A DNA stretch of 24,000 nt, from contig NZ_CP055305.1 in NCBI RefSeq assembly GCF_013377995.1, forward strand, positions 983,394 to 1,007,393, in the 5' to 3' direction. The position numbers and the translations under genes were made by a program. Position 1 is the stretch's first letter; the number at the start of each line of letters is the position of its first letter. Under the pieces are notes generated by a model that made no database searches, was not told the DNA's origin, and was given only the letters and a program-made list of their open reading frames with translations. Shown here in pieces: positions 1 to 19,002 of the stretch. Source of the DNA: Mannheimia pernigra. GTDB taxonomy: Bacteria; Pseudomonadota; Gammaproteobacteria; Enterobacterales; Pasteurellaceae.

Positions 1-734
1 CTTGGACCTTCTGGAAGTTAATGTTTAACTACAGTGGTACATCGGTAATGTCTATGGGGGTAATGTTATTCCAACTTTATATGGCCGTCTTGCTTGTTTG
101 GATTGCTATTATGTTTAAAGATTGGGTGGCTGTTTTTATCAATCGTTATCTTCCATCATTAAAATTATTGTTAGGTTGGATTGATACGCTTGAGGCAAAA
201 CTCCTAAAACCGATTGAATTTATCTTATTTGTATTAGCCGCTGTACTCGGGGCGTATACAGGTTTCCTACTTTCAGCGTTAATTAGTTACCCAATGTTAA
301 ATAACCCTGTATTGCCAGCGTTATTCTTAGCTTCTGGTGCATCATCGGGTATTGCAGCAACATTCTTAATGGTGCTACTGGCTGGCAAATTATCAGGTGA
401 AAGCCACGAAATTTACTTTATGCACAAATTTGAAGTGCCTATTATGGTAACGGAACTCGGCTTAATTGTTGCGTTCTTCGTAGGATTACACTTTGGTGGA
501 GCAGATAAATCACTTGCTTTAACGAATGCACTTAGTGGCTTTTGGGGAACGCTTTTCTGGATTGGGGTAATGCTCATCGGTATTGCCATTCCGCTGATTG
601 CCAATATTTTTGGCAGCCATCGCTTAAAGCATAACGTAAAATTTATTATCTTGATTTCTGTTTTCGATTTAATCGGTGTACTCTGTTTACGTTACTTTAT
701 TCTTTACGCAGGGCAGCTTACTGTGGCAAGCTAA
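1..734 (+). CDS. nrfD: NrfD/PsrC-family integral membrane subunit of nitrite reductase, C-terminal part (5' end lies outside the window; frame is open from base 3)
   Basis: Polytopic hydrophobic protein ending in ...LRYFILYAGQ, which is typical of NrfD. It is followed directly by nrfE/dsbE/nrfF/nrfG-like genes. The frame stays open upstream of the listed ATG to the window edge. Confidence 0.75.
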   Translation, partial: WTFWKLMFNYSGTSVMSMGVMLFQLYMAVLLVWIAIMFKDWVAVFINRYLPSLKLLLGWIDTLEAKLLKPIEFILFVLAAVLGAYTGFLLSALISYPMLNNPVLPALFLASGASSGIAATFLMVLLAGKLSGESHEIYFMHKFEVPIMVTELGLIVAFFVGLHFGGADKSLALTNALSGFWGTLFWIGVMLIGIAIPLIANIFGSHRLKHNVKFIILISVFDLIGVLCLRYFILYAGQLTVAS

Positions 735-881
735 AGGCAACATTGAATAAAATCATTGTTATGGGAGCTAGTTCTTTTTTGAGATCTCGCTCCCCTCTTT
801 GCTAAAGAGGGAAATCTACTTGAGTGTATATTATATTCTTTGCTAATTTTTCTTCACAAGCGGTTATTTTTTGGATAATTT

Positions 882-2795
882 ATGCTACCTGAACTGGGCT
901 ATTTTTCACTTTTATTGGCAGCGATTACAGCCATTTTTCAAGTCAGTTTTGCGATATGGGGCGAAGTTCGTAAGCAATATCATTGGCTGGCGTTATCGTC
1001 TTTGTTTACCTATTTGCAAGCTGCTTTCATAAGCATTTCCTTTTTTGCCTTAGTTTGTGCTTTTTTAACTGATGATTTCTCCGTGATTTATGTTGCTGCT
1101 CACTCTAATATCCAACTTCCTCACTTTTTTAAATTTGCAGCCTCTTGGGGTGGACATGAAGGTTCAATGCTGTTTTGGCTTATGGCGTTAGTGCTTTGGT
1201 CAGCCGTATTTTGTACATTTTCCTCGAAAATTGACCGCTTGTTTGCTCATCGAACCTTAGTAATGCTTGGGCTAATTTCACTTGGTTTTTTGCTTTTTAT
1301 TTTATTTGTCTCTAATCCTTTTGAACGAGGCTTTCCACCGCCGCCAGAAGGACGAGATCTCAACCCAATGTTGCAAGATATTGGCTTGATTTTCCATCCT
1401 CCGTTGCTTTATTTAGGCTATGTTGGCTTTGCAGTGAGCTTTGCGATGATTGTCGCTGCGTTGATTTCAGGTGGAATGGATGCTGCCATAATGCGTTGGA
1501 TTCGCCCGTGGGCGATGATTTCGTGGGGATTTCTTACTGCGGGAATCCTTTTAGGGGCTTGGTGGGCGTATTATGAACTAGGATGGGGTGGCTGGTGGTT
1601 CTGGGATCCTGTTGAAAATGCTTCATTAATGCCCTGGTTGTTAGGTACTGCCCTTGTGCATAGTTTAATTGTAAGCCAGCAGCGTGGGGTGTTCTATTAC
1701 TGGACGATTTTACTCGCTATTTTTGCCTTTGCATTGAGCTTATTAGGCACATTTATTGTTCGCTCTGGTGTTTTAACGTCTGTTCACGCATTTGCCATTG
1801 ATCCTGATCGTGGAATGGCGTTGCTGATATTATTTTTCAGCCTCAGCTTTATCGCCTTAGCACTTTTTGCATTTAGAGCAACGTTATGGCAAGGCAAAGT
1901 TCAGTTTAATTTGCTGTCAAAAGAAACCGCCTTTCTGATGATTAACGGTTTATTCAGTGTAGCTGCTTGCGTCGTGTTATTGGGCACATTCTACCCAATG
2001 ATCTTCACTATGATGAACTGGGGCGCAATTTCAGTTGGAGCACCTTATTTCAATAGTGTGTTTGCCCCTCTTGCTTTATTGCTGATGATTATGATGAGCT
2101 TGGCGACTACGTTACGTTGGAAGCAGCTCCCAATCAAACAAATTTTAGTGAAATTATGGCTATTTCCAGTAGCATTTGCTATCGCTATAGGGCTGATTTA
2201 TCATTCTATTTCCACCCGACCGCATTTTGAGTTGGTGTTATTGCCAATTGTGTTTATAAGCCTTGCGATCTGGATTATTCTAACTCACATTCCCTATTTG
2301 CGATTTATGTTTAACATCCGCCCGCTTGCAATGCGATTAGCTCACATTGGCTTTGCAGTAGGCGTGGTTGGCGCAATGATGAACAGTTATTACGGCGATG
2401 AAATCGGCGTTCGCTTAAAAGTAGGTGAGCAGGCTGAATTAGCAGGTTATACTTTCAAATATGAAGATTACAATGATTTAATTGGCCCAAACTACACGGC
2501 TGAGCAAGCCGTTTTCTCGATTAGTAAAGAAGGTGAAACTCTCGCTAATGTGATGCCAGAAAGACGATATTATGATGTTCGTACGATGACAATGGCAGAA
2601 GTAGGGCTATACCACCACTATTTGGACGACATTTACATTGTAATGGGCGATAAATTTGGTCACCTAGAATATGCTTTCCGCCTACACTACAAGCCTTATG
2701 TACAAGCCCTGTGGCTTGGTGGGCTGATTATGATTTTAGGTGCATTGCTGGCGTTGTTGGGGTATTGCAGACCCTCTTTTTCAAATAAAGACTAA
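882..2795 (+). CDS. nrfE: CcmF/NrfE-family cytochrome c heme lyase membrane subunit
   Basis: 637 aa polytopic protein with a Trp-rich WGGWWFWDPVENASLMPWL motif (the CcmF WWD-type heme-handling motif). It lies downstream of nrfD. Confidence 0.85.
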   Translation: MLPELGYFSLLLAAITAIFQVSFAIWGEVRKQYHWLALSSLFTYLQAAFISISFFALVCAFLTDDFSVIYVAAHSNIQLPHFFKFAASWGGHEGSMLFWLMALVLWSAVFCTFSSKIDRLFAHRTLVMLGLISLGFLLFILFVSNPFERGFPPPPEGRDLNPMLQDIGLIFHPPLLYLGYVGFAVSFAMIVAALISGGMDAAIMRWIRPWAMISWGFLTAGILLGAWWAYYELGWGGWWFWDPVENASLMPWLLGTALVHSLIVSQQRGVFYYWTILLAIFAFALSLLGTFIVRSGVLTSVHAFAIDPDRGMALLILFFSLSFIALALFAFRATLWQGKVQFNLLSKETAFLMINGLFSVAACVVLLGTFYPMIFTMMNWGAISVGAPYFNSVFAPLALLLMIMMSLATTLRWKQLPIKQILVKLWLFPVAFAIAIGLIYHSISTRPHFELVLLPIVFISLAIWIILTHIPYLRFMFNIRPLAMRLAHIGFAVGVVGAMMNSYYGDEIGVRLKVGEQAELAGYTFKYEDYNDLIGPNYTAEQAVFSISKEGETLANVMPERRYYDVRTMTMAEVGLYHHYLDDIYIVMGDKFGHLEYAFRLHYKPYVQALWLGGLIMILGALLALLGYCRPSFSNKD

Positions 2796-2798
2796 AAA

Positions 2799-3332
2799 AT
2801 GAAGAAAATATTTTTACTGATTCCGCTGTGTCTCCTGATTGCCATTGTAGGCTTTCTTTCTGTTCCACTCATAAATAAAGATGCCCTTTCTCCAACGGAA
2901 GATTGGCAGGGCAAGCCATTTCCAGAATTTGTGGGCAAGAATTTGCTCGATAGCAACGCCCATTTGAACAATAACAGCCTACCGAAAGAGCCTTATATTC
3001 TCAATGTGTGGGCGAGCTGGTGTACTTGGTGCATTAAAGAATTTCCAATTTTGTTAGAACTAAAACAGCGAGGCGTACCGATTGTCGGCTTAACCTACAG
3101 CGATCGCCCAAATGATGCACTGAAAGCGTTAGAAAATTGGGGAAATCCGTTTAGCCTAATTATTGATGACTACGAAAAAGGCGTTTTAATTCAAATGCTT
3201 AAGGTTTCTTCAGCACCTTCAACTTATTTGATAGATCGTAACGGCATTGTGCGTTACCAGCAAAAAGGCTACAACCCTGATTTTGCCCAAGATTTTTTGC
3301 CAAAGTTAGAGGTGCTACGTAATGAAAAGTAA
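2799..3332 (+). CDS. dsbE: DsbE/CcmG-family periplasmic thiol:disulfide oxidoreductase
   Basis: N-terminal membrane anchor and a thioredoxin-type active site WASWCTWC (CxxC). It sits between the nrfE- and nrfF-like genes, 3 nt after the nrfE stop. Confidence 0.8.
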   Translation: MKKIFLLIPLCLLIAIVGFLSVPLINKDALSPTEDWQGKPFPEFVGKNLLDSNAHLNNNSLPKEPYILNVWASWCTWCIKEFPILLELKQRGVPIVGLTYSDRPNDALKALENWGNPFSLIIDDYEKGVLIQMLKVSSAPSTYLIDRNGIVRYQQKGYNPDFAQDFLPKLEVLRNEK

Positions 3333-3741
3333 GCGGTCATTTTTGCAAAAAATTTGGCTAATTCTACCGCTTGTATTTGGTATGGCTGCCATAGTTCAAG
3401 CGGATATGGTGGATACCTTTCAATTTAAAAATGAGGCAGACCGAGTGAGGGCAATCTCACTTGCTCGCGCTTTACGCTGCTTACAGTGCCAAAACCAAAA
3501 TTTGGTTGAATCGAACGCGACTGCAGCTTATAACTTGCGGATTGAAGTTTATGAAATGGTGAGTGAGGGGAAAAGCAATGAGGAAATTATCCGCATTATG
3601 ACGGACCGCTTCGGTAATTTTGTAAATTATAACCCACCACTTACGTCACAAACTTGGGTACTTTGGGGTTTACCTGTTGGGCTATTTAGTTTGTTATTTC
3701 TTGCCATTTTATGGCGAACCCGAAAAAAAGAAATGAAATAA
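3322..3741 (+). CDS. nrfF: CcmH/NrfF-family cytochrome c maturation protein
   Basis: Signal peptide, LRCLQCQNQ (the CcmH LRCxxC motif) and a C-terminal TM helix. The start overlaps the dsbE stop. Confidence 0.8.
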   Translation: MKSKRSFLQKIWLILPLVFGMAAIVQADMVDTFQFKNEADRVRAISLARALRCLQCQNQNLVESNATAAYNLRIEVYEMVSEGKSNEEIIRIMTDRFGNFVNYNPPLTSQTWVLWGLPVGLFSLLFLAILWRTRKKEMK

Positions 3742-3752
3742 GAGTAAATATA

Positions 3753-4520
3753 ATGGAAAGTCGCGATCAATTAAGCAGAGAAAATTACCAACAAGCGGTC
3801 AAATTTGCTCAACAGTTTGCAGATGATGTGAAGCAAGAATATGAGCGTGAGGCAGAGCAGCGTTACCAGTTCGAGAAAGCTCAATTTGAACAAAGTGAGT
3901 TGCAAAATAATGCTAAAAAGCGACCGCTTGCTAGAATGACAACACTTTCACTTCTTGCAATTTTATTGTTAGGCGTTGCTTACTATAGTTTCTCAGGGCG
4001 TTATCAAGTTGTACAAGAAGGCTTGAACGTCCACAAAGATTTTCAGCAACAAATGAGTGAAGCTCACGGCACGTCAAAAAATGAACGCTACATTATCAGC
4101 CTACAAAATCAGTTAAGAGAGAACCCCAATAATGGCGACTTGTGGTATGAGCTAGGGCAGGCTTATGTGTTAAGTAATGACTTCGATTCAGCCTTAGTTT
4201 GCTATGACAATGCTCAAAAACTACTCGGTAAAAAAGCGGCGATTTTAGGCGCAATCGCAACGGCTCGTTATTATGATAATGGGCAGAAAATGAACAAAGA
4301 AATCAGTGCAATGATTGATGAAGCATTGAGCTTAGATAAGAATGAAAGTGCCAGTTTGTTGTTACGAGCTTCAGATGGCTTTTTAAATAATAACTACCAA
4401 CAAGCACTAGATTATTGGCGAAAAGTGTTAGATGGAAACGATAATGCAATTAATCGCCGAGCCATCATTCAAAGTATGGAGATGACGAGGCAGATCTTGG
4501 AAGGGCAACAAGGAAAATAA
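3753..4520 (+). CDS. nrfG: NrfG/CcmI-like TPR protein for cytochrome c (NrfA) maturation
   Basis: Charged N-terminus, one TM helix (LSLLAILLLGVAYYSF) and TPR-like repeats (DLWYELGQAYVLSNDFDSALVCYDNA). The ATG at 3753 lies 12 nt after the nrfF stop, so I prefer it to the ORF-track start at 3711, which is inside nrfF. Confidence 0.65.
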   Translation: MESRDQLSRENYQQAVKFAQQFADDVKQEYEREAEQRYQFEKAQFEQSELQNNAKKRPLARMTTLSLLAILLLGVAYYSFSGRYQVVQEGLNVHKDFQQQMSEAHGTSKNERYIISLQNQLRENPNNGDLWYELGQAYVLSNDFDSALVCYDNAQKLLGKKAAILGAIATARYYDNGQKMNKEISAMIDEALSLDKNESASLLLRASDGFLNNNYQQALDYWRKVLDGNDNAINRRAIIQSMEMTRQILEGQQGK

Positions 4521-5573: not shown

Positions 5574-5657
5574 AAAATTGCTCTGTTTGGTTGGAATGGG
5601 GGTATTATAAGATTTAAAAACTGGTAAGGGAATGGCGGTTTTTGGAAAGGTGGTTTT
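5571..5657. repeat. 87-bp direct repeat, copy 1 (partner at 11749-11835). It covers the start codon and upstream region of the NMO-like gene.
   Basis: Hand alignment gives 78/87 identities. The last 74 bp have only 4 mismatches. On the minus strand it contains a perfect TATAAT. Confidence 0.85.
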
Positions 5658-5671
5658 CGTTTTTGGAAATA

Positions 5672-5716
5672 TTATTTTCAGACTGCCTGAAAGTTTTTAA
5701 AATAAAAACACCGCTT
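5672..5716. repeat. 45-bp composite intergenic element, copy A: DUS-like near-palindrome TTTCAGACTGCCTGAAA plus the AAAAACACCGCT terminator arm (partner at 10202-10246)
   Basis: ttattttcagactgcctgaaagtttttaaaataaaaacaccgctt differs from the 10202-10246 copy at 2 of 45 positions. Confidence 0.85.
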
Positions 5717-5736
5717 TATCAAAAACGGTGCTTTTG
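5705..5736 (-). terminator. Rho-independent terminator downstream of the DUF305 gene
   Basis: The minus strand reads CACCGTTTT-TGAT-AAAGCGGTG followed by TTTTTATTTT (about 9 bp of stem including one G-U pair). Confidence 0.55.
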
Positions 5737-5747
5737 CCTTATTGCCC

Positions 5748-6491
5748 CTACTGTTTTAGCCAATCTTCCATCAGCTTAATTTCAGGCTCTTGGGCATTGA
5801 TGATTTGCTTTGCTAAATCTTGCATTGCTTTATCTTTGCCGTATTCTAATTGCACTTTTGCCATATTGACCGCTCCCTTGTGGTGGGGAATCATCGCTTT
5901 GGCAAAGGCGACATCAGGGTCGGTCTCATAAATTGCCGTCATCATTTCGCTGTGTGAATTGTCCAAGGCATAGGCTTTGGCGTGTGGGGCGTTGGCGTTT
6001 TGGGTGGTCGTGTCTTTGCCATTCAGCCAGCCATTCATCAAGTCAATTTCGGCTTGTTGCCCATCAATAATCGCTTGGGCAAGTTTTCTCATTGTTTCAT
6101 CTTTACCATATTCAAGCTGTACTTTTGCCATCTCAACTGCTCCGATATGGTGCGGAATCATACCTTTGGCAAAAGCAGTATCAGCATCGGCAAGATTGCC
6201 CGCTTTGCTCATCTCATCGCCCATCTTGTTCATCATTGCAAGATAGGCTTGGGTATGGGGCGGAGCATTTTGAGTGTCCATCGCCATAGCAGAGTGGTTC
6301 ATATTAGCGTGGTTCATCTCTGCGTGCCCGTTTTGGTTATTTGGGCTGTCGTGGGTGGTTTGGGTGTGGTTATTGTCGCCTACCATCGAGTGCGTCGGCA
6401 CTTCGTTTTTGCCGTCGGCACAAGCGGTTAAAGTCGCCAAAATAAGGGCAAGGGCAGATAATTGTACGGCACGGTTTTTAAACATTTTCAT
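5748..6491 (-). CDS. DUF305-family lipoprotein with a His/Met-rich N-terminal region (putative periplasmic copper/metal-binding protein)
   Basis: Two DUF305 half-repeats (AFAKGMIPHHIGAVEMAKVQLEYGKD... and AFAKAMIPHHKGAVNMAKVQLEYGKD...). Lipobox LATLTAC. His/Met-rich stretch HAEMNHANMNHSAMAM. The ATG at 6491 is preceded by AAGGAAA and is preferred to the ORF-track start at 6551. Confidence 0.75.
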   Translation of the reverse strand: MKMFKNRAVQLSALALILATLTACADGKNEVPTHSMVGDNNHTQTTHDSPNNQNGHAEMNHANMNHSAMAMDTQNAPPHTQAYLAMMNKMGDEMSKAGNLADADTAFAKGMIPHHIGAVEMAKVQLEYGKDETMRKLAQAIIDGQQAEIDLMNGWLNGKDTTTQNANAPHAKAYALDNSHSEMMTAIYETDPDVAFAKAMIPHHKGAVNMAKVQLEYGKDKAMQDLAKQIINAQEPEIKLMEDWLKQ

Positions 6492-6524
6492 TACAGTTTT
6501 CCTTATCAAAATGGGATTTGGCAA

Positions 6525-6554
6525 ACATTGGGCAAACATAAGTCCGCCCAATGT
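6525..6554. terminator. Intergenic hairpin between the Cys-rich gene and the DUF305 gene (possible attenuator or partial terminator)
   Basis: ACATTGGGC (6525-6533) pairs with GCCCAATGT (6546-6554): a 9-bp perfect stem with a 12-nt loop. T-rich sequence follows on both strands. Confidence 0.35.
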
Positions 6555-6568
6555 TTTTAGCTAATCAA

Positions 6569-6712
6569 TTACTTGCAATCACAATCGCCACAAGTGCAGT
6601 TTTGACAAATGCACGGCTCGCCATTTTGGCAGTTGCATTTTGGATTGCAATTTTGCCCTGTGCAAGATTGGCAACCGCAGTGGGCGTTTGGGTTTTTGAT
6701 GATGTCGTTCAT
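6569..6712 (-). CDS. 47-aa cysteine-rich protein, metallothionein-like (12 Cys, five CxC motifs)
   Basis: MNDIIKNPNAHCGCQSCTGQNCNPKCNCQNGEPCICQNCTCGDCDCK. The ATG at 6712 is preceded by GGAGA with a 6-nt spacer. It lies directly upstream of, and co-oriented with, the DUF305 gene. Confidence 0.6.
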   Translation of the reverse strand: MNDIIKNPNAHCGCQSCTGQNCNPKCNCQNGEPCICQNCTCGDCDCK

Positions 6713-6733
6713 AACAATTCTCCAAATTAAAGG

Positions 6734-7297
6734 TTGATTATCAAAACAAAAACCGTTTTTAAACCCATTAATAAAAAAATGCCATTTAAAACGGTCACTT
6801 TTGCACAAGCAACAACCAATGATGGTCAATCCTTATTAGCGGTTAATGACTTATTTATTGGCCCTAAAAGCCACACTTCCGCACAGTATATTTTGCAATG
6901 GAATGGCGCTGAAGAAGTGCAATCTTCATCAGGCATTATTGTATCAACAGGATTGGGATCAACGGGGTGGTTTCAATCTATTCTTGCTGGTGCGATGGCA
7001 ATTACAGGAGAAGCTTCGCACCCTCTATTACAAGGCTTTAGCTGGAGTGATCGAAAGCTACAATTTAGTGTAAGAGAGCCATTTCCAAGTAGAACAACAG
7101 GTGTTGCACTGACTTTTGGCACTATTGAGCCTGACTCACCACTGCAATTAGGATCTTTGATGCCAGAGAATGGCGTAATTTTCTCTGATGGCATCGAAGA
7201 TGACTATTTACAATTTAATGCAGGTTGTATTGCTCACATTGGTATCGCTGACATACAAGGGCAACTAATTAGCCAAAAAGGGCGTCAGCGAATTTAG
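6734..7297 (+). pseudogene. 5'-truncated NAD kinase-like (ATP-NAD kinase family) gene; only the C-terminal domain is retained
   Basis: LLAVNDLFIG...SSGIIVSTGLGSTGW resembles the NadK C-terminal motif (NE..., GDG.IVSTPTGSTAY). The N-terminal GGDG-containing half is missing. The first ~20 codons of the ORF are AT-rich junction sequence. Confidence 0.55.
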
Positions 7298-7299
7298 AT

Positions 7300-7926
<627 letters not shown>

Positions 7927-8014: not shown

Positions 8015-9217
8015 ATGAATAAATCAATTATTATTATACTGCTGATCACCGTATTAGATGCCATTGGTATCGGGCTTATCATGCCAGTACTCCCTACTCT
8101 ATTAAATGAATTTGTCAGTGAAAATTCACTGGCAACCCATTACGGTGTGCTATTAGCGCTCTATGCTACCATGCAGGTTATTTTTGCTCCTATTCTAGGA
8201 CGACTGTCTGATAAATACGGCAGAAAACCCATCTTGCTGTTTTCCCTTTTAGGCGCGGCACTCGACTATCTTTTAATGGCATTCTCAACCACACTTTGGA
8301 TGCTCTATATTGGGCGCATCATTGCGGGGATCACAGGCGCAACAGGTGCCGTATGTGCATCAGCGATGAGTGATGTGACTCCCGCTAAAAATCGAACTCG
8401 CTATTTTGGTTTCTTAGGTGGTGCTTTTGGTGTTGGCCTTATTATCGGCCCAATGCTAGGGGGATTATTAGGTGATATCAGTGCTCATATGCCATTTATT
8501 TTTGCCGCTATTTCACACTCGATATTATTAATACTCTCTTTGCTCTTTTTCCGAGAAACACAAAAAAGAGAAGCGCTTGTTGCCAATAGGACACCTGAAA
8601 ACCAAACTGCCTCAAATACAGTCACTGTTTTTTTTAAGAAAAGCCTCTACTTTTGGTTAGCAACCTATTTTATTATCCAGCTTATCGGGCAAATTCCTGC
8701 CACCATCTGGGTGCTGTTTACACAATATCGTTTTGATTGGAACACAACTTCTATCGGTATGTCTTTGGCGGTTCTGGGTGTATTACATATTTTCTTTCAG
8801 GCGATTGTCGCTGGGAAATTGGCACAAAAATGGGGCGAAAAAACCACCATTATGATCAGTATGTCTATTGATATGATGGGCTGTTTATTATTAGCGTGGA
8901 TAGGCCACGTTTGGGTCATCTTACCAGCATTAATTTGCTTAGCGGCAGGAGGTATGGGGCAACCCGCATTACAAGGTTATTTATCAAAATCTGTCGATGA
9001 TAATGCGCAAGGGAAATTACAAGGTACTCTGGTGAGCCTAACCAATATTACCGGGATCATTGGTCCCCTTTTATTTGCCTTTATTTATAGTTATAGCGTC
9101 GCTTATTGGGATGGTCTGTTATGGCTGATGGGGGCAATACTTTATGCTATGTTGCTTATTACCGCTTATTTTCACCAAAGAAAAACCACACCTAAAGCTG
9201 TTATTTCAACCCCTTAA
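8015..9217 (+). CDS. tet(H): Tetracycline efflux MFS transporter (12-TMS), class H-like
   Basis: 400 aa. N-terminus MNKSIIIILLITVLDAIGIGLIMPVLPTLLNEF and motif GRLSDKYGRKPIL. Lengths of 400 aa (TetA) and 207 aa (TetR) fit class H as I recall it. The class call needs an alignment. Confidence 0.8.
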   Translation: MNKSIIIILLITVLDAIGIGLIMPVLPTLLNEFVSENSLATHYGVLLALYATMQVIFAPILGRLSDKYGRKPILLFSLLGAALDYLLMAFSTTLWMLYIGRIIAGITGATGAVCASAMSDVTPAKNRTRYFGFLGGAFGVGLIIGPMLGGLLGDISAHMPFIFAAISHSILLILSLLFFRETQKREALVANRTPENQTASNTVTVFFKKSLYFWLATYFIIQLIGQIPATIWVLFTQYRFDWNTTSIGMSLAVLGVLHIFFQAIVAGKLAQKWGEKTTIMISMSIDMMGCLLLAWIGHVWVILPALICLAAGGMGQPALQGYLSKSVDDNAQGKLQGTLVSLTNITGIIGPLLFAFIYSYSVAYWDGLLWLMGAILYAMLLITAYFHQRKTTPKAVISTP

Positions 9218-9286: not shown

Positions 9287-9319
9287 CGCTTGAATTTTCC
9301 CCCAAGCGGTGTTTTTTTT
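9287..9319 (+). terminator. Truncated copy of the island-type terminator (CGCTTG-N10-CAAGCG followed by GTG and eight T residues)
   Basis: The right arm CAAGCGGTGTTTTTTTT matches the island terminator family. The left arm lacks the AACAC part seen at 11411-11422. This marks the right edge of the tet module. Confidence 0.5.
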
Positions 9320-9650
9320 AATGCCCACCCATTTTGGACAGCGTATTCATCATTATCACACCTGCCAAAATCAAGCCAATGCTCGCAATTCCCCAAAAAT
9401 CGACCTTTTCGCCAAACACCACCACGCCCACAATCGCCGTCAAAACCAAGCCCACGCCAGACCAAATCGCATACGCCATTCCCAAAGGAATGCTTTTTAA
9501 CGCCAATGACAGCAAATAAAACGCCAAGCCAAAACCCAGCACAAAACCAATACTCGGCAAAGGCTTACTAAACCCTTGTGATAATTTTAGCATCGTAGAG
9601 CCAAATACTTCGCAAACAATGGCAATCGCCAAAAAAACAGACCAATGCAT
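9318..9650 (-). CDS. Small multidrug resistance (SMR, EmrE/SugE-like) efflux protein
   Basis: 110 aa with four TM helices. The conserved membrane-embedded Glu is at position 14 (AIAIVCEVFGSTMLK). The ATG at 9650 is preceded by GGAG; the ORF-track start at 9662 is a TTG. Confidence 0.8.
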   Translation of the reverse strand: MHWSVFLAIAIVCEVFGSTMLKLSQGFSKPLPSIGFVLGFGLAFYLLSLALKSIPLGMAYAIWSGVGLVLTAIVGVVVFGEKVDFWGIASIGLILAGVIMMNTLSKMGGH

Positions 9651-9678
9651 AAAAATCTCCAAAATAAAAAGTTAAAAA

Positions 9679-10122
9679 TTAATTTTCCAAACGCTGTGCC
9701 AGCATTTTTTGCAACGCATTCATTTCATTGAGCAAAAATACAAGTCGTTCAATGCCAAATTCATCAATCACTTGCCCTTCCTGCCTTAATAAAGGGGCGA
9801 TAATCGGGCGGGCAAACGCTTTGCCTTTATCGGTCAAAGAAATGACTTTTTCTCGTTTGTTATTTTCTTTGACATCGCTTGCGATGAAACCGTCCGTTTC
9901 AAGGCGTTTGCACAAGCTGTTAATGGTTTGTTTGGCAAGATGATATTTGTCGGCAATGTATTTTTGCGTGGCTTGTTCTTGCGTCCAGAGTGTATAAAAT
10001 ATGGCAAGTTCATTGGCGTTCATCTGATGATTTTTGGCAAAAACTGCATAACTTAAATTGACCTGCGTGCAAACATCGCCAATTTGTTCCAACAGATTGG
10101 GGGAATGGTTAAAAGTTGTCAT
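9679..10122 (-). CDS. MarR-family transcriptional regulator
   Basis: 147 aa with a winged-helix region (QKYIADKYHLAKQTINSLCKRLETDGFI). It lies 28 nt upstream of, and co-oriented with, the SMR gene. Confidence 0.75.
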   Translation of the reverse strand: MTTFNHSPNLLEQIGDVCTQVNLSYAVFAKNHQMNANELAIFYTLWTQEQATQKYIADKYHLAKQTINSLCKRLETDGFIASDVKENNKREKVISLTDKGKAFARPIIAPLLRQEGQVIDEFGIERLVFLLNEMNALQKMLAQRLEN

Positions 10123-10273: not shown

Positions 10274-10888
10274 TCAACTGACTTTTAATTCCGCCCAAGC
10301 CCTTTTGATGATTTCTTGACTGGCTTGTAATGCCAAAAATGCCAAAACAAACGCCACAATTAAATCAGGATATTTTGATTGAAAAAAATAAACTGCCATA
10401 CCCGCCAAAATTACCGCCACATTACCAATCGCATCGTTTCGGGAACACACCCACACACTGCGGACATTGCTGTCGCCATCACGAAATTTTAATAATATCA
10501 ACACTGCCGACACATTGACCAATAACGCCAAAAATCCCACAATGCTCATTTCAGAAGAACTGGGCATTTCCCCATAAAACACACGATAAATGGTCGTCAT
10601 TAAAATAAATAAACCAAAACCGCCCATCGTTAGCCCCTTAACCATAGATGCTTTGGCTCGGTAACTTAACGCCATTGGCAAAACAATCAAACTTATCAAA
10701 TAATTGGCACTGTCGCCCAAGAAATCCAAACTGTCCGACAACAGCGAAGTTGAACCCGATTTAACCCCCATCACAATTTCCACAAAAAACATTGATAAAT
10801 TTAATATCAAGACAATCCACAAGGCTTTTTTGTACTTGGGCGATTGATGAATGGGCTGATTTGAAGTGCAACAATTTTGGCACGCCAT
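10274..10888 (-). CDS. Short cation diffusion facilitator (CDF) metal efflux protein; transmembrane domain only
   Basis: 204 aa with six predicted TM helices. The TM2 motif DFLGD and TM5 motif CSRNDAIGN align to the CDF (H/D)xxxD motifs. N-terminal MACQNCC. RBS GGAG lies 6 nt upstream of the ATG. Confidence 0.7.
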   Translation of the reverse strand: MACQNCCTSNQPIHQSPKYKKALWIVLILNLSMFFVEIVMGVKSGSTSLLSDSLDFLGDSANYLISLIVLPMALSYRAKASMVKGLTMGGFGLFILMTTIYRVFYGEMPSSSEMSIVGFLALLVNVSAVLILLKFRDGDSNVRSVWVCSRNDAIGNVAVILAGMAVYFFQSKYPDLIVAFVLAFLALQASQEIIKRAWAELKVS

Positions 10889-10958: not shown

Positions 10959-11357
10959 ATGTCAAAATTTTTTAAAATAAAACAAGCCAGTGAACAAACA
11001 GGCGTGCATTTGGAAACCATTCGTTATTATGAAAAACAAGGCTTAATCGCCCCCACACATCAACAAAATGGCTATCGTGTGTTTGACGAACAAACCCTTG
11101 CTCAATTACGCTTTATTAAAGCCTGTCGCAATATCGGTTTTTCTTTAAATGACATCAAAACGCTGTTGCAATTACAACAAACGCCTAACAAACAATGCAA
11201 TGAAATCAATGCACTTGCCGAACAACATTTGGCATATTTGGACGAACAAATTAAAGAATTACAACAAGTTAAAACTTTTTTAATGCAATTTGTGGGTTGT
11301 GAAAATAAAACGGTTGATAAGTGTCAGATTATTCAAGGTATTAAAGAAAAAGAATAG
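10959..11357 (+). CDS. MerR-family heavy-metal-responsive regulator (CadR/ZntR-like)
   Basis: 132 aa. HTH IKQASEQTGVHLETIRYYEKQGLI. Cys80, Cys114 and Cys122 sit at positions analogous to the metal-binding Cys of MerR, CadR and ZntR. The gene is divergent from the CDF gene. Confidence 0.8.
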   Translation: MSKFFKIKQASEQTGVHLETIRYYEKQGLIAPTHQQNGYRVFDEQTLAQLRFIKACRNIGFSLNDIKTLLQLQQTPNKQCNEINALAEQHLAYLDEQIKELQQVKTFLMQFVGCENKTVDKCQIIQGIKEKE

Positions 11358-11451: not shown

Positions 11452-11751
11452 TTAACCTTTCAACCCATACTGATACGGCACGCCCAAATGCTCCCTTAGT
11501 GTATCGCCTTCATAATCGGTATGATAAATCCCACGCTCCTGCAAAATCGGCACGACTTTTTCCACAAATTCACGCACGCCCATTTGACTGTCAGGGGCAA
11601 GTGAAAAACCGTCTTGGGTTTTGATTGTTTGCACAAGCGATTTTGATAGACTGACCTTAACAAGCGGTTTTGGCGTTTTGGCAACTGCCACAGAACCAAA
11701 AGACAAAGACAATGCCAAGGCAATGGCGGTTGATTTTAATAAGGTTTTCAT
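11452..11751 (-). pseudogene. 99-codon chimeric ORF: Sec-type signal peptide fused to the C-terminal tail of an NtaA/DszA-type LLM flavin monooxygenase (probable gene remnant)
   Basis: DGFSLAPD...FVEKVVPILQERGIYHTDYEGDTLREHLGV resembles the conserved LLM C-terminus (..DGF....FVD.VVPELQRRGLFRTEYEG.TLRE.LGL). These enzymes are about 440 aa and cytoplasmic, yet the N-terminus MKTLLKSTAIALALSLSFGSVAVA is a signal peptide. Confidence 0.5.
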
Positions 11752-16761: not shown

Positions 16762-16892
16762 TCAATTTGCAAAATTTTTATGAAAATCGACCGCTTGTCA
16801 GAATAATTTTGCAAGCTTATTTAAAAGTTTTTTGACATTCGGTTAAATTTAATAGACCATACACCAATTTTGTTAATTTGAGTCCTATTTTG

Positions 16893-17693
16893 ATGTCTAG
16901 AGAAAATTTGGTTGAAGTAAAGCATCTGACCTTTAAACGAGGGAGCCGAGTGATTTATGACAATCTCAATTTGCAAGTGCAAAAAGGTAAAGTAACTGCC
17001 ATTATGGGGCCGTCTGGAATAGGTAAAACTACGTTGTTACGCTTAATTAGCGGTCAAATTTTACCTGAATCAGGCGAAATATTGTTTGATGGCAGAGATA
17101 TTTGTAAAGCAAATAATAAAGAGCTTTATGAAATTCGCCAGAGAATGGGGATGCTGTTCCAATCAGGTGCGTTATTTACCGATATTTCTACATTTGATAA
17201 TGTGGCTTTCCCTATTCGTGAGCACACTTGTTTGCCCGAAGAGCTAATTAGAAAATTAGTGCTGTTGAAACTAGAAGCCGTTGGGCTTCGGGGCGCGGCA
17301 AGTCTAATGCCTTCCGAATTATCTGGTGGTATGGCGCGTCGTGTCGCACTTGCTCGTGCGATAGCACTAGATCCTGATTTGATAATGTATGATGAACCCT
17401 TTGCAGGACAGGATCCGATTAGTATGGGTGTGATTGTAGAGTTAATTAAAGAGTTAAATCAGGCATTAAATCTCACCTCTATTGTTGTATCTCACGATGT
17501 AAAAGAGGTGCTAAGTATTGCGGATTATGCTTATATTGTGGCGGATAAACGCATTATTGCAGAAGGAACACCAGAAATGTTACTCGAAAGCCAGGATCCA
17601 CAAGTAGTGCAATTCTTAGCAGGTAAATCTGACGGCCCCGTGCGTTTCCACTACCCGGCTAAAGATTATACGGAGGAGCTATTTAATGGTTAA
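16893..17693 (+). CDS. mlaF: Phospholipid ABC transporter ATP-binding protein MlaF
   Basis: Walker [10 protein letters not shown], signature LSGGMARR and Walker B LIMYDEP. It is the first gene of a mlaFEDCB-like cluster. The ATG at 16893 is preferred; the ORF-track start at 16878 is a TTG. Confidence 0.85.
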
Positions 17694-18462
17694 TTTTATT
17701 AGCTCTGTTGGGATTTGTGTTATTAATTTTATCCGTACGTTTGGGCGTTCCGCTTTTATGTTATGGGGAGCATTAATTGGTAAACCTGAATTTAGAAAAC
17801 ACAAACCGTTATTGATTAAGCAGCTTTATGTGCTAGGGGTACAATCGCTTTTAATTATTATGCTTTCAGGCTTATTTATCGGTATGGTGTTAGGTTTACA
17901 AGGTTATGTGGTATTAACAGATTTTGCCGCTGAAAGCAGTTTGGGGACGTTAGTATCGCTTTCGCTATTGCGTGAATTAGGGCCTGTAGTTACCGCTTTA
18001 TTATTTGCAGGGCGAGCTGGCTCAGCATTAACAGCAGAAATTGGTTTAATGAAAGCGACAGAGCAACTTTCCAGCCTTGAAATGATGGCCGTTGATCCAT
18101 TAAGAAGAATTATTGCACCTCGCTTTTGGGCTGGAGTAATCTCAATGCCTATTTTGGCAGCCATTTTTACCGCAATTGGTATTTGGGGAAGCTCGCTTGT
18201 TGGCGTCGACTGGAAAGGTGTTGATAGTGGAAGTTTTTGGTCTGTAATGCAAAGTTCTGTTAATGCTAGCGATTTAGTTAATGGTTTCATTAAAAGTATT
18301 ATTTTTGCCTTTGCTATAGTGTGGATTGCTTTATTTAATGGTTATGATTGTATACCTACTTCAGAAGGTATTAGCCAAGCAACAACAAAAACCGTGGTAA
18401 ATGCATCACTTGTGATTTTAGGATTAGATTTTATTTTAACTGCGATTATGTTCGGTGGTTGA
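17686..18462 (+). CDS. mlaE: Phospholipid ABC transporter permease MlaE
   Basis: 258 aa polytopic permease with conserved [27 protein letters not shown]. The start overlaps the mlaF stop. Confidence 0.85.
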
Positions 18463-18483
18463 TTTTAGTAAAAGGAATAGACA

Positions 18484-19002
18484 ATGCGTCAATCAATTAA
18501 ATATGAATTCTGGGTAGGGTTATTTGTGCTACTAGGGTTAGCAGCTCTTGTCTTTTTAGGTTTAAGAGTGGCCAATGTGCAAGGGTTCGCTAGTGAGAAA
18601 ACCTACACGCTTTATGCAACTTTTGACAATATTGGTGGACTAAAGGTACGTTCGCCAATAAAAGTGGGTGGCGTAGTAGTAGGGAGAGTTACAGATATTT
18701 CTCTTGACAAGAAAAGCTATACGCCTAAAGTTGCCTTAGCTGTGAATGAGAATTTTAACCAAATTCCAGATACCAGCACGCTTTCAATTAAAACCTCTGG
18801 CTTATTAGGCGAACAATATATTGCGTTAAATGTCGGCTTTATGATTGAAGGCGAAACGGCAATAATGAAAGAGGGGGATACTTTTGTAGATACTAATTCT
18901 GCAATGGTGTTGGAAGATTTAATCGGTCAGTTTTTATATGGCGATAAAAAGTCAGATAAAATTGAAGGTGAAAAAGCGGTTGATTCTGTCACGGCAGAAT
19001 AA
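18484..19002 (+). CDS. mlaD: MCE-domain phospholipid-binding protein MlaD
   Basis: N-terminal TM anchor and an MCE domain (FDNIGGLKVRSPIKVGGVVVGRV). Confidence 0.8.
   Translation: MRQSIKYEFWVGLFVLLGLAALVFLGLRVANVQGFASEKTYTLYATFDNIGGLKVRSPIKVGGVVVGRVTDISLDKKSYTPKVALAVNENFNQIPDTSTLSIKTSGLLGEQYIALNVGFMIEGETAIMKEGDTFVDTNSAMVLEDLIGQFLYGDKKSDKIEGEKAVDSVTAE

Follow-up and report, generated by a model that had tools for sequence, protein, structure and literature searches.

We describe here a small cysteine-rich gene in a 24,000-nucleotide (nt) stretch of the Mannheimia pernigra genome (NZ_CP055305.1, positions 983,394–1,007,393; this whole stretch is referred to below as the window), and propose that its 47-residue product is probably a cytoplasmic, metallothionein-like Cu(I)-binding thionein belonging to no described family. 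In relatives the gene is framed by a gene for a CueR regulator, a promoter of the MerR type and a gene for a periplasmic copper protein, and it is because of this setting that we interpret the product as a CueR-induced cytoplasmic Cu(I) thionein. We also lean slightly towards the view that the peptide is the founding member of a third bacterial metallothionein family, namely a eukaryote-like CxC Cu(I) thionein under CueR control, carried in a mobile module together with a periplasmic copper binder and linked to tet(H), SMR and CDF genes.

A cysteine-rich coding sequence

The gene lies on the minus strand. The reverse complement of positions 6569..6712 translates to MNDIIKNPNAHCGCQSCTGQNCNPKCNCQNGEPCICQNCTCGDCDCK followed by a stop codon, an exact match to the 47-amino acid (aa) sequence in an initial annotation of the window that did not state the strand, and the plus strand of the same interval translates to an unrelated hydrophobic string. 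Twelve of the 47 residues (25.5%) are Cys, at positions 12, 14, 17, 22, 26, 28, 34, 36, 39, 41, 44 and 46, and they make up the five CxC motifs that the annotation had listed (CGC, CNC, CIC, CTC and CDC) as well as three CxxC spacings. The peptide contains no aromatic residues, three Ile and one His, and has neither a signal or leader peptide nor a hydrophobic core, in agreement with what had been noted at the outset. Its composition is that of a metallothionein, with a size below ~10 kDa, a Cys content within ~15-30%, CxC and CxxC motifs and few or no aromatic residues. The Cys density is exceptional for the window: the maximum number of Cys in any 35-codon segment is 12, at the peptide gene, compared with 5-9 across 100 shuffles, the binomial expectation of such a density over all six-frame segments is ~8e-5, and there is no second stop-free segment of comparable Cys density anywhere in the 24,000 nt.

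The start codon is preceded by the GGAGA ribosome-binding site at the 6-nt distance proposed earlier (Table 1). An open reading frame (ORF) finder reports instead an 86-aa ORF with a TTG start (6829..6569, minus strand) that encloses the gene. The two types of allele described below are separated upstream of the ATG by a 7-nt indel that breaks the upstream frame, while the ATG and GGAGA are kept in both, and we therefore assign the start to the ATG at 6712 and regard the 86-aa ORF as the artefact that it had been suspected to be.

It is practically certain that the Cys-rich ORF is a real protein-coding gene. There are two allele types, A (47 aa, the form in the window) and B (MNADFVQNRHAHCGCQSCTGQNCRPDCQCQNGKPCICDDCTCNGCACES, 49 aa, with a single Phe in its N-terminal tail), which are 67% identical, and all 12 Cys (12/12) and their spacing (Cx1Cx2Cx4Cx3Cx1Cx5Cx1Cx2Cx1Cx2Cx1C) are the same in both. 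The ratio of nonsynonymous to synonymous substitution rates (dN/dS, Nei-Gojobori) between types A and B is 0.14 in the peptide frame and 0.9-1.5 in four of the five other frames, among them that of a hydrophobic 59-aa ORF on the opposite strand; the fifth has a dN/dS of 0.23 but cannot be coding, since stop codons interrupt it in both alleles. Among 12 distinct DNA alleles, variable sites at codon positions 1, 2 and 3 number 12, 8 and 21 respectively, and 11 columns vary in a purely synonymous manner, including TGC/TGT exchanges at three of the Cys codons. The residues that are invariant across alleles are not restricted to Cys, and include H11, G13, Q15, S16, T18-N21, P24, Q29-G31, P33, I35 and T40. 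As judged from these alleles, the peptide frame is under purifying selection.

The antisense 59-aa ORF deserves mention because it is called by several annotation pipelines, at several loci together with the peptide gene, and in the RefSeq record of a Glaesserella parasuis plasmid (NZ_CP071488.1; L028 8983-9162) it is the sole annotation (WP_010787307.1), the Cys-rich gene being omitted. That it is the real gene, or that the region is non-coding, is nevertheless extremely improbable, given its dN/dS of 1.18 against 0.14 in the sense frame and the sense orientation of the CueR promoter, the ribosome-binding site and the downstream operon; an Rfam scan of positions 5600..7000 returned nothing relevant. 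The prediction that automated annotation would miss the gene therefore holds for records with the antisense ORF only but not for many Moraxella genomes, in which NCBI calls the 47-aa product. The locus provides a clear example of a real small gene that is sometimes replaced by an antisense ORF in annotation pipelines.

Gene order and control in relatives and in the window

Tabulation of the genomic neighbours, recommended in the initial annotation, places a MerR/CueR gene on the 5' side of the peptide gene, a DUF305 or DUF411 gene on its 3' side, and on one contig a continuation into a CopA-type P-ATPase. At every locus with intact flanks the 5' neighbour is a divergently transcribed MerR-family gene encoding 128-134 aa. 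The top NCBIfam match of its product is CueR (TIGR02044; 145.4 and 149.9 bits with a cut-off of 147.4), with ZntR, CadR and MerR well behind, and the protein carries the metal loop CRGDDMPEC (CxGx5C) and SCEV (S-x2-V), both of which are CueR signatures (PMC10187127). PGAP labels it a 'Cu(I)-responsive transcriptional regulator', and on these sequence features the divergent regulator is CueR.

The interval between cueR and the peptide gene contains the sequence CTTGACC-CTAACnnAAGGTTAGGnTT-TATGAT, with a -35 element (TTGACC) and a -10 element (TATGAT) separated by a 19-bp spacer. Between the two elements is a perfect dyad, ACCCTAA-N7-TTAGGGT, which is conserved in types A and B, and the exact operator/promoter pattern is present in 42 of the 48 loci fetched. 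The geometry agrees with that of the CueR operators of Escherichia coli (ACCTTCC-N7-GGAAGGT) and Haemophilus influenzae (ACCTTaA-N7-TaAAGGT) (PMC10187127). The features that define a CueR regulon member (the 19-bp spacer, the 7-N7-7 dyad and an adjacent CueR gene) are thus all found in the relatives and not in the window.

On the 3' side in the window, copM begins 77 nt after the peptide gene and in the same orientation, as the initial annotation had described for a DUF305 lipoprotein gene; the profile matches are given in Table 1, and the product has a lipobox (LTAC) followed by a His/Met-rich N-terminal stretch, both read directly from the sequence. Synechocystis CopM, a resistance protein of the periplasm, binds Cu(I) with a dissociation constant (KD) of ~3e-16 (PMC4335983). 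In relatives the 3' gene encodes either a DUF305/CopM protein or a DUF411 protein with a CxCC motif (in L024 and at the second copy in L003, a Moraxella sp.). The native unit is thus ordered cueR (divergent), CueR-type promoter, peptide gene, hairpin, periplasmic copper protein gene and terminator. The terminator-like hairpin that closes the unit in the window is not in the list from our promoter/terminator scan, which accepts only loops of 3-8 nt.

The strong hairpin in the spacer between the peptide gene and copM is a possible partial terminator or attenuator, or an mRNA-stabilising element. Its stem is kept behind the DUF411-linked second copy in L003, with a different loop. The stability of this hairpin, together with the short length of the ORF and its position immediately upstream of copM, would suit a cis-acting translated leader that tunes copM with the hairpin, the peptide itself being unimportant. 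This is very unlikely, however, as non-Cys residues do not vary among alleles in spite of saturation at synonymous sites, the ORF is found elsewhere in front of an unrelated DUF411 gene and is tandemly duplicated as an independent unit, and copM has a spacer and start of its own.

Two Moraxella genomes carry additional copies of the peptide gene. In L003 (CP089975.1) there is a second, unannotated copy (8516-8662) that is a mosaic of a type B N-terminal tail and a type A core; it has its own CueR gene and operator, and is followed by the DUF411 gene (CopG-like, CxCC) rather than DUF305. Moraxella nasicaprae (CP089977.1; L001/L002) has three copies within 6.3 kb, of which two are in tandem behind cueR, with starts 235 bp apart and with the leader and hairpin included in the duplication. 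The third, like the window copy, is preceded by the tet(H) junction.

Alignments indicate that the 5' end of the module has been lost in the window: a tetR(H)-tet(H) fragment is joined 53 nt before the ATG, and cueR and the operator are deleted. Beyond the junction the DNA is 99.3% identical, up to ~6752, to tetR(H)-flanking DNA of Moraxella osloensis pNP7-1 and of Acinetobacter lwoffii plasmids, and the junction itself is a short microhomology (...ATGG/GTTTAAAAAC...). The truncated orf187 is a marker of this rearrangement; on plasmids of Moraxella, Acinetobacter, Psychrobacter and Pasteurellaceae its full-length 314-aa form is found beside tetR(H). The tetR(H), tet(H), SMR and MarR genes (Table 1) stand where cueR would otherwise be. 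M. nasicaprae CP089977 shares this rearranged layout, with 98% identity over 4 kb, and retains an intact cueR module beside it. There is no cueR gene in the window, and the CueR operator/promoter pattern is absent from the whole of it, even with 3 mismatches allowed.

Because this tet(H)-associated rearrangement removed both cueR and the operator, the window copy would no longer be copper-regulated, and it may be poorly expressed. In the window the peptide gene and copM would depend entirely for their transcription on weak fortuitous promoters or on read-through from the co-oriented tetR(H), and a scan of the minus strand from 7300 to 6712 detected nothing resembling a terminator. Two minus-strand promoter candidates (6962..6935 and 6744..6717, the second overlapping the ribosome-binding site) are 9/12 matches, and the scan returned 11 sites in total compared with 7.1 ± 2.4 in shuffles. 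Both were rejected because the consensus matches are weak and not above chance.

Proposed function, distribution and surroundings

The candidate metallothionein of the initial annotation gains support from the dN/dS of 0.14, the invariant 12 Cys and their spacing, the CueR operator and the copper-protein neighbours. In the native arrangement, a rise in cytoplasmic Cu(I) would lead Cu-CueR to remodel the 19-bp-spacer promoter, and the operon would be transcribed. The peptide would remain in the cytoplasm, where its 12 thiolates, in CxC and CxxC arrangements, could wrap a polynuclear Cu(I)-thiolate cluster and so buffer copper, and the CopM lipoprotein would bind copper in the periplasm; the hairpin at 6523..6556 may set the ratio of peptide to CopM. 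By analogy with other copper thioneins, the predicted capacity of 12 Cys is ~6-8 Cu(I), or ~4 divalent ions.

The main rivals to a copper thionein are a role with divalent metals and a role as a chaperone. A metallothionein for Zn or Cd could work with the neighbouring CDF transporter gene and its divergent MerR132 regulator gene (CadR/PbrR-like), which share the island with the peptide gene in most loci, and by the chemistry of metallothioneins 12 Cys could make an M(II)4 cluster as in the mammalian alpha domain. It seems unlikely that this is the function, since the peptide gene is directly behind a CueR gene and a CueR-type operator and not a MerR132 promoter, the regulator has the signature of a sensor for monovalent ions (a dimerisation helix that begins with Ser in place of Cys, and the CxGx5C loop), and the genes downstream encode copper proteins (CopM, DUF411 and, at one locus, CopA). 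A copper chaperone that passes Cu(I) to an efflux ATPase, or a thiol-rich stress peptide that scavenges oxidants, in place of a buffering thionein, would be regulated in the manner of the tandem copZ genes under CueR in H. influenzae (PMC10187127), and gene dosage varies in like manner in the tandem of M. nasicaprae. We find this distinctly unlikely: there is no CopZ-like fold, MxCxxC motif or Pfam HMA match, 12 Cys in 36 residues are usual for a thionein that forms clusters but not for a chaperone with a single site, and copA is usually not adjacent. An exported or modified peptide, such as a disulfide-rich bacteriocin or the precursor of a ribosomally synthesised and post-translationally modified peptide, would likewise be small, Cys-rich and horizontally spread among competitors sharing a niche, but is highly improbable for a product with no signal or leader, under the control of a copper sensor, and with no adjoining maturation enzyme, immunity gene or transporter in ~45 loci.

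Several observations weigh against the copper thionein that we favour. Diversity within each allele type is very low at the nucleotide level, as a result of recent spread, and the signal of selection is essentially one deep comparison (A with B) plus a few singletons. A type B allele (P0009) is frameshifted after codon 20 in one lineage, seen in two independent assemblies (Table 1), and one Cys is replaced by Tyr in two single-genome variants (L027 and P0004); since such alleles exist, the gene would be dispensable in some backgrounds. The mechanism fits the relatives, and with the CueR operator missing it does not demonstrably fit the window copy itself. CueR-type sensors answer to Ag(I) and Au(I) too, and Cys-rich peptides also bind Zn and Cd. 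Finally, a single-sequence AlphaFold model is metal-free and of low confidence (predicted local distance difference test, pLDDT, 69.7; predicted template-modelling score, pTM, 0.36), the five models disagree with one another, and we gave the model no weight as evidence. The frameshift lineage and the Cys-to-Tyr variants are exceptions among ~60 intact copies, and frameshifted relatives, which the initial annotation had named as a ground for abandoning the gene, are confined to that single lineage. At one of the two frameshifted loci (L047) the CDF and tetR genes alongside are likewise shortened or split, which points either to decay of the island or to an assembly prone to errors.

In a pattern scan covering one genome per species, the peptide gene turned up in 17 species of the Moraxellaceae, Neisseriaceae, Pasteurellaceae and Alcaligenaceae, and a metagenome scan found it on 17 further contigs; the scans detect only relatives that retain [NH]AHCGCQS or CTGQNC, and these counts are lower bounds. 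The Moraxella carriers are M. lacunata, M. oblonga, M. porci, M. canis and strain VT-16-12, and those in the Pasteurellaceae are Actinobacillus minor, Pasteurella langaaensis, two Rodentibacter species, Muribacter muris and one Pasteurellaceae bacterium. Neisseria dentiae, N. wadsworthii, Alysiella crassa, a Conchiformibius metagenome-assembled genome and Pelistega suis are also among the carriers. In G. parasuis the module is on a complete circular plasmid (NZ_CP071488.1), and at least some of the entries under that name are therefore genuine and not contamination. The alleles at loci L001-L046 are mosaic, with three segments that can be exchanged (N-terminal tail, middle and C-terminal end), and nucleotide identity inside each type is nearly 100% across different bacterial families, which points to recent horizontal spread and recombination. 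By these patterns the module passes horizontally between bacteria of animal airways and mouths, and its mosaic alleles arise by recombination.

The identical type A protein is recorded from 9 contigs in public databases under the NCBI name 'MULTISPECIES: hypothetical protein [Moraxella]', and UniProt/UniRef label Moraxella entries, including that of M. nasicaprae, 'Metallothionein' (two in UniProt). Type B comes from only 2 contigs in the protein collection, compared with 11 species genomes that carry it. Word-index searches returned only the two allele clusters and one frameshifted product, and no publication on the peptide came up when the literature was searched for metallothioneins together with Moraxella, Pasteurellaceae, CueR, DUF305 or CopM.

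The region had been described as a metal-resistance island, a name that fits only in part. A CDF metal-efflux gene and a second MerR-family regulator gene are indeed nearby, but tet(H), tetR(H) and the SMR and MarR genes lie in between (Table 1). The CDF/MerR132 pair accompanies the peptide module, with 94-98% protein identity in loci from Pasteurellaceae, Neisseriaceae and Moraxella. A 99-aa ORF at 11452-11751 (minus strand) matches only the final ~45 residues of FMN monooxygenases of the NtaA/DmoA family, and is probably a gene remnant at the island edge. The flanks (21-4520 and 16878-19002) contain housekeeping genes, namely nrfD and the cytochrome c maturation genes ccmF/G/H to one side and mlaFED to the other, and since these ordinary genes are on both sides we take the island to be chromosomal in this window.

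Table 1. Features around the peptide gene (window coordinates), and the frameshifted allele recorded elsewhere
Feature	Coordinates	Strand	Evidence or remarks
Terminator-like hairpin and U-run closing the peptide-copM unit	~5699..5735	minus	-17.7 kcal/mol, z = -4.2
DUF305/CopM-family lipoprotein gene, copM (247 aa)	5748..6491	minus	Pfam PF03713 E=3.7e-50; NCBIfam CopM NF049983 E=1.7e-58
Strong hairpin in the 77-nt spacer, peptide stop to copM start	6523..6556	minus	-27.9 kcal/mol, z = -4.6
Antisense hydrophobic 59-aa ORF	6551..6730	plus	Spurious; dN/dS 1.18
Peptide coding sequence, type A allele, stop codon included	6569..6712	minus	Translation of reverse complement
Surviving native 5' leader, 53 nt	6713..6765	minus	Homology to CueR-controlled upstream region ends at ~6765 (alignments)
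Ribosome-binding site GGAGA	6719..6723	minus	Read directly; 6 nt, then ATG 6712..6710
orf187, 5'-truncated remnant of a 314-aa hypothetical gene flanking tetR(H) in tet(H) plasmids	6734..7297	plus	
tetR(H)	7300..7923	minus	NCBIfam NF010319, 310 bits (cut-off 265)
tet(H), tetracycline efflux	8015..9217	plus	NCBIfam NF012195, 903.9 bits (cut-off 840)
SMR pump	9318..9662	minus	Pfam, NCBIfam
MarR regulator	9679..10122	minus	Pfam, NCBIfam
Short CDF metal-efflux transporter (204 aa)	10274..10888	minus	Pfam Cation_efflux, TIGR01297
Second MerR-family regulator (132 aa), divergent from the CDF gene, not CueR	10959..11357	plus	CadR/PbrR 111 bits, below cut-off of 151
Frameshifted allele P0009	L047 5001-5159 (CP163374.1); L048 1320-1478 (Logan SRR24954748)		

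The carriers belong to veterinary and human-associated genera (Moraxella, Actinobacillus, Glaesserella, Pasteurella and Neisseria), and the position of the mobile island beside tet(H), together with the G. parasuis plasmid, bears on the co-selection of metal and antibiotic resistance in livestock. If our interpretation is correct, the module could be co-selected by tetracycline use and by copper, whether the latter stems from host immunity or from additives to feed. With a 47-aa peptide, one regulator and one operator, the system is compact and easily testable.

Comparison with known metallothioneins and copper systems

The peptide matches no family in Pfam-A (hmmscan with E up to 10), PF02069 and the eukaryotic metallothionein families (PF00131 and others) included, and none in NCBIfam at the same limit. 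A phmmer search of PDB chains gave no match, and Foldseek with the AlphaFold model found no structural neighbour in the PDB. A phmmer search of 1.84 billion representative proteins returned only the peptide's own cluster, a result that is uninformative on breadth because types A and B probably share one 50% cluster and composition filters penalise Cys-rich matches. BLAST comparison with known metallothionein sequences gave only alignments driven by Cys in a toy database; these were rejected as evidence of homology and used only for a table of Cys spacings.

Few metallothioneins of bacteria have been characterised well, and a 2020 review of bacterial copper homeostasis includes only SmtA/BmtA and MymT (PMC7558416). 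With SmtA/BmtA the peptide shares the general plan of a small Cys-rich bacterial metal binder encoded under a metal sensor, but it has no match to PF02069, lacks the Cys9His2 zinc-finger-like ligand set and contains no aromatic residues, and on these three counts we conclude, in line with the initial annotation, that it is not a member of this family. SmtA is moreover a Zn4 protein (PMC7558416), whereas the context of the peptide is copper.

In the host-associated bacterium Mycobacterium tuberculosis, MymT is a very small, cytoplasmic, Cys-rich protein that was at first unannotated, is copper-induced and is needed for copper resistance (PMC7558416). It is the nearest functional analogue of our peptide, both being tiny and Cys-rich and with cytoplasmic Cu(I) buffering as the role that the peptide would have. 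There is, however, no detectable sequence relationship, no MymT profile in the libraries matched the peptide, and the peptide differs in that its hosts are Gram-negative and its module is mobile and coupled to periplasmic CopM. MymT has 7 Cys at other spacings, against 12 Cys with five CxC motifs in the peptide, and the mycobacterial regulator is of the CsoR/RicR type, whereas that of the peptide is of the CueR (MerR) type.

The eukaryotic Cu-thioneins (those of Neurospora and Agaricus, yeast Cup1 and the beta domain of vertebrate metallothionein) are, like the peptide, dominated by CxC motifs at gaps of 2-5 residues and devoid of aromatic residues. The C-terminal half of the peptide (CxC-x5-CxC-x2-CxC-x2-CxC) resembles the beta-domain and fungal pattern CxC-x5-CxC-x3-CxC-x2-C. 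There is no statistically meaningful sequence similarity to these proteins in Pfam, the PDB or the 1.84-billion library, and the promoter, ribosome-binding site and operon of the peptide gene are bacterial. Convergence may account for the likeness, which we do not use as evidence of homology.

In H. influenzae, CueR controls tandem copZ chaperone genes of variable copy number that buffer cytoplasmic Cu(I) (PMC10187127). The two systems have in common the airway niche of the Pasteurellaceae, the CueR family, the operator geometry and tandem variation in copy number, but CopZ is a single-site CxxC chaperone with a ferredoxin fold whose gene is followed by copA, whereas the peptide is an unstructured Cys cluster whose gene is followed by copM. 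The Csp proteins are also Cys-lined, high-capacity bacterial stores of Cu(I) (PMC7558416), but are pre-folded four-helix bundles of more than 100 residues, in contrast to the 47 residues and absence of predicted helices in the peptide. The peptide is best filed as a new family within the metallothioneins, uncharacterised though the database name 'Metallothionein' has already been given to it, and a third unrelated family of this kind, if true, would widen the view of cytoplasmic copper buffering in Gram-negative bacteria.

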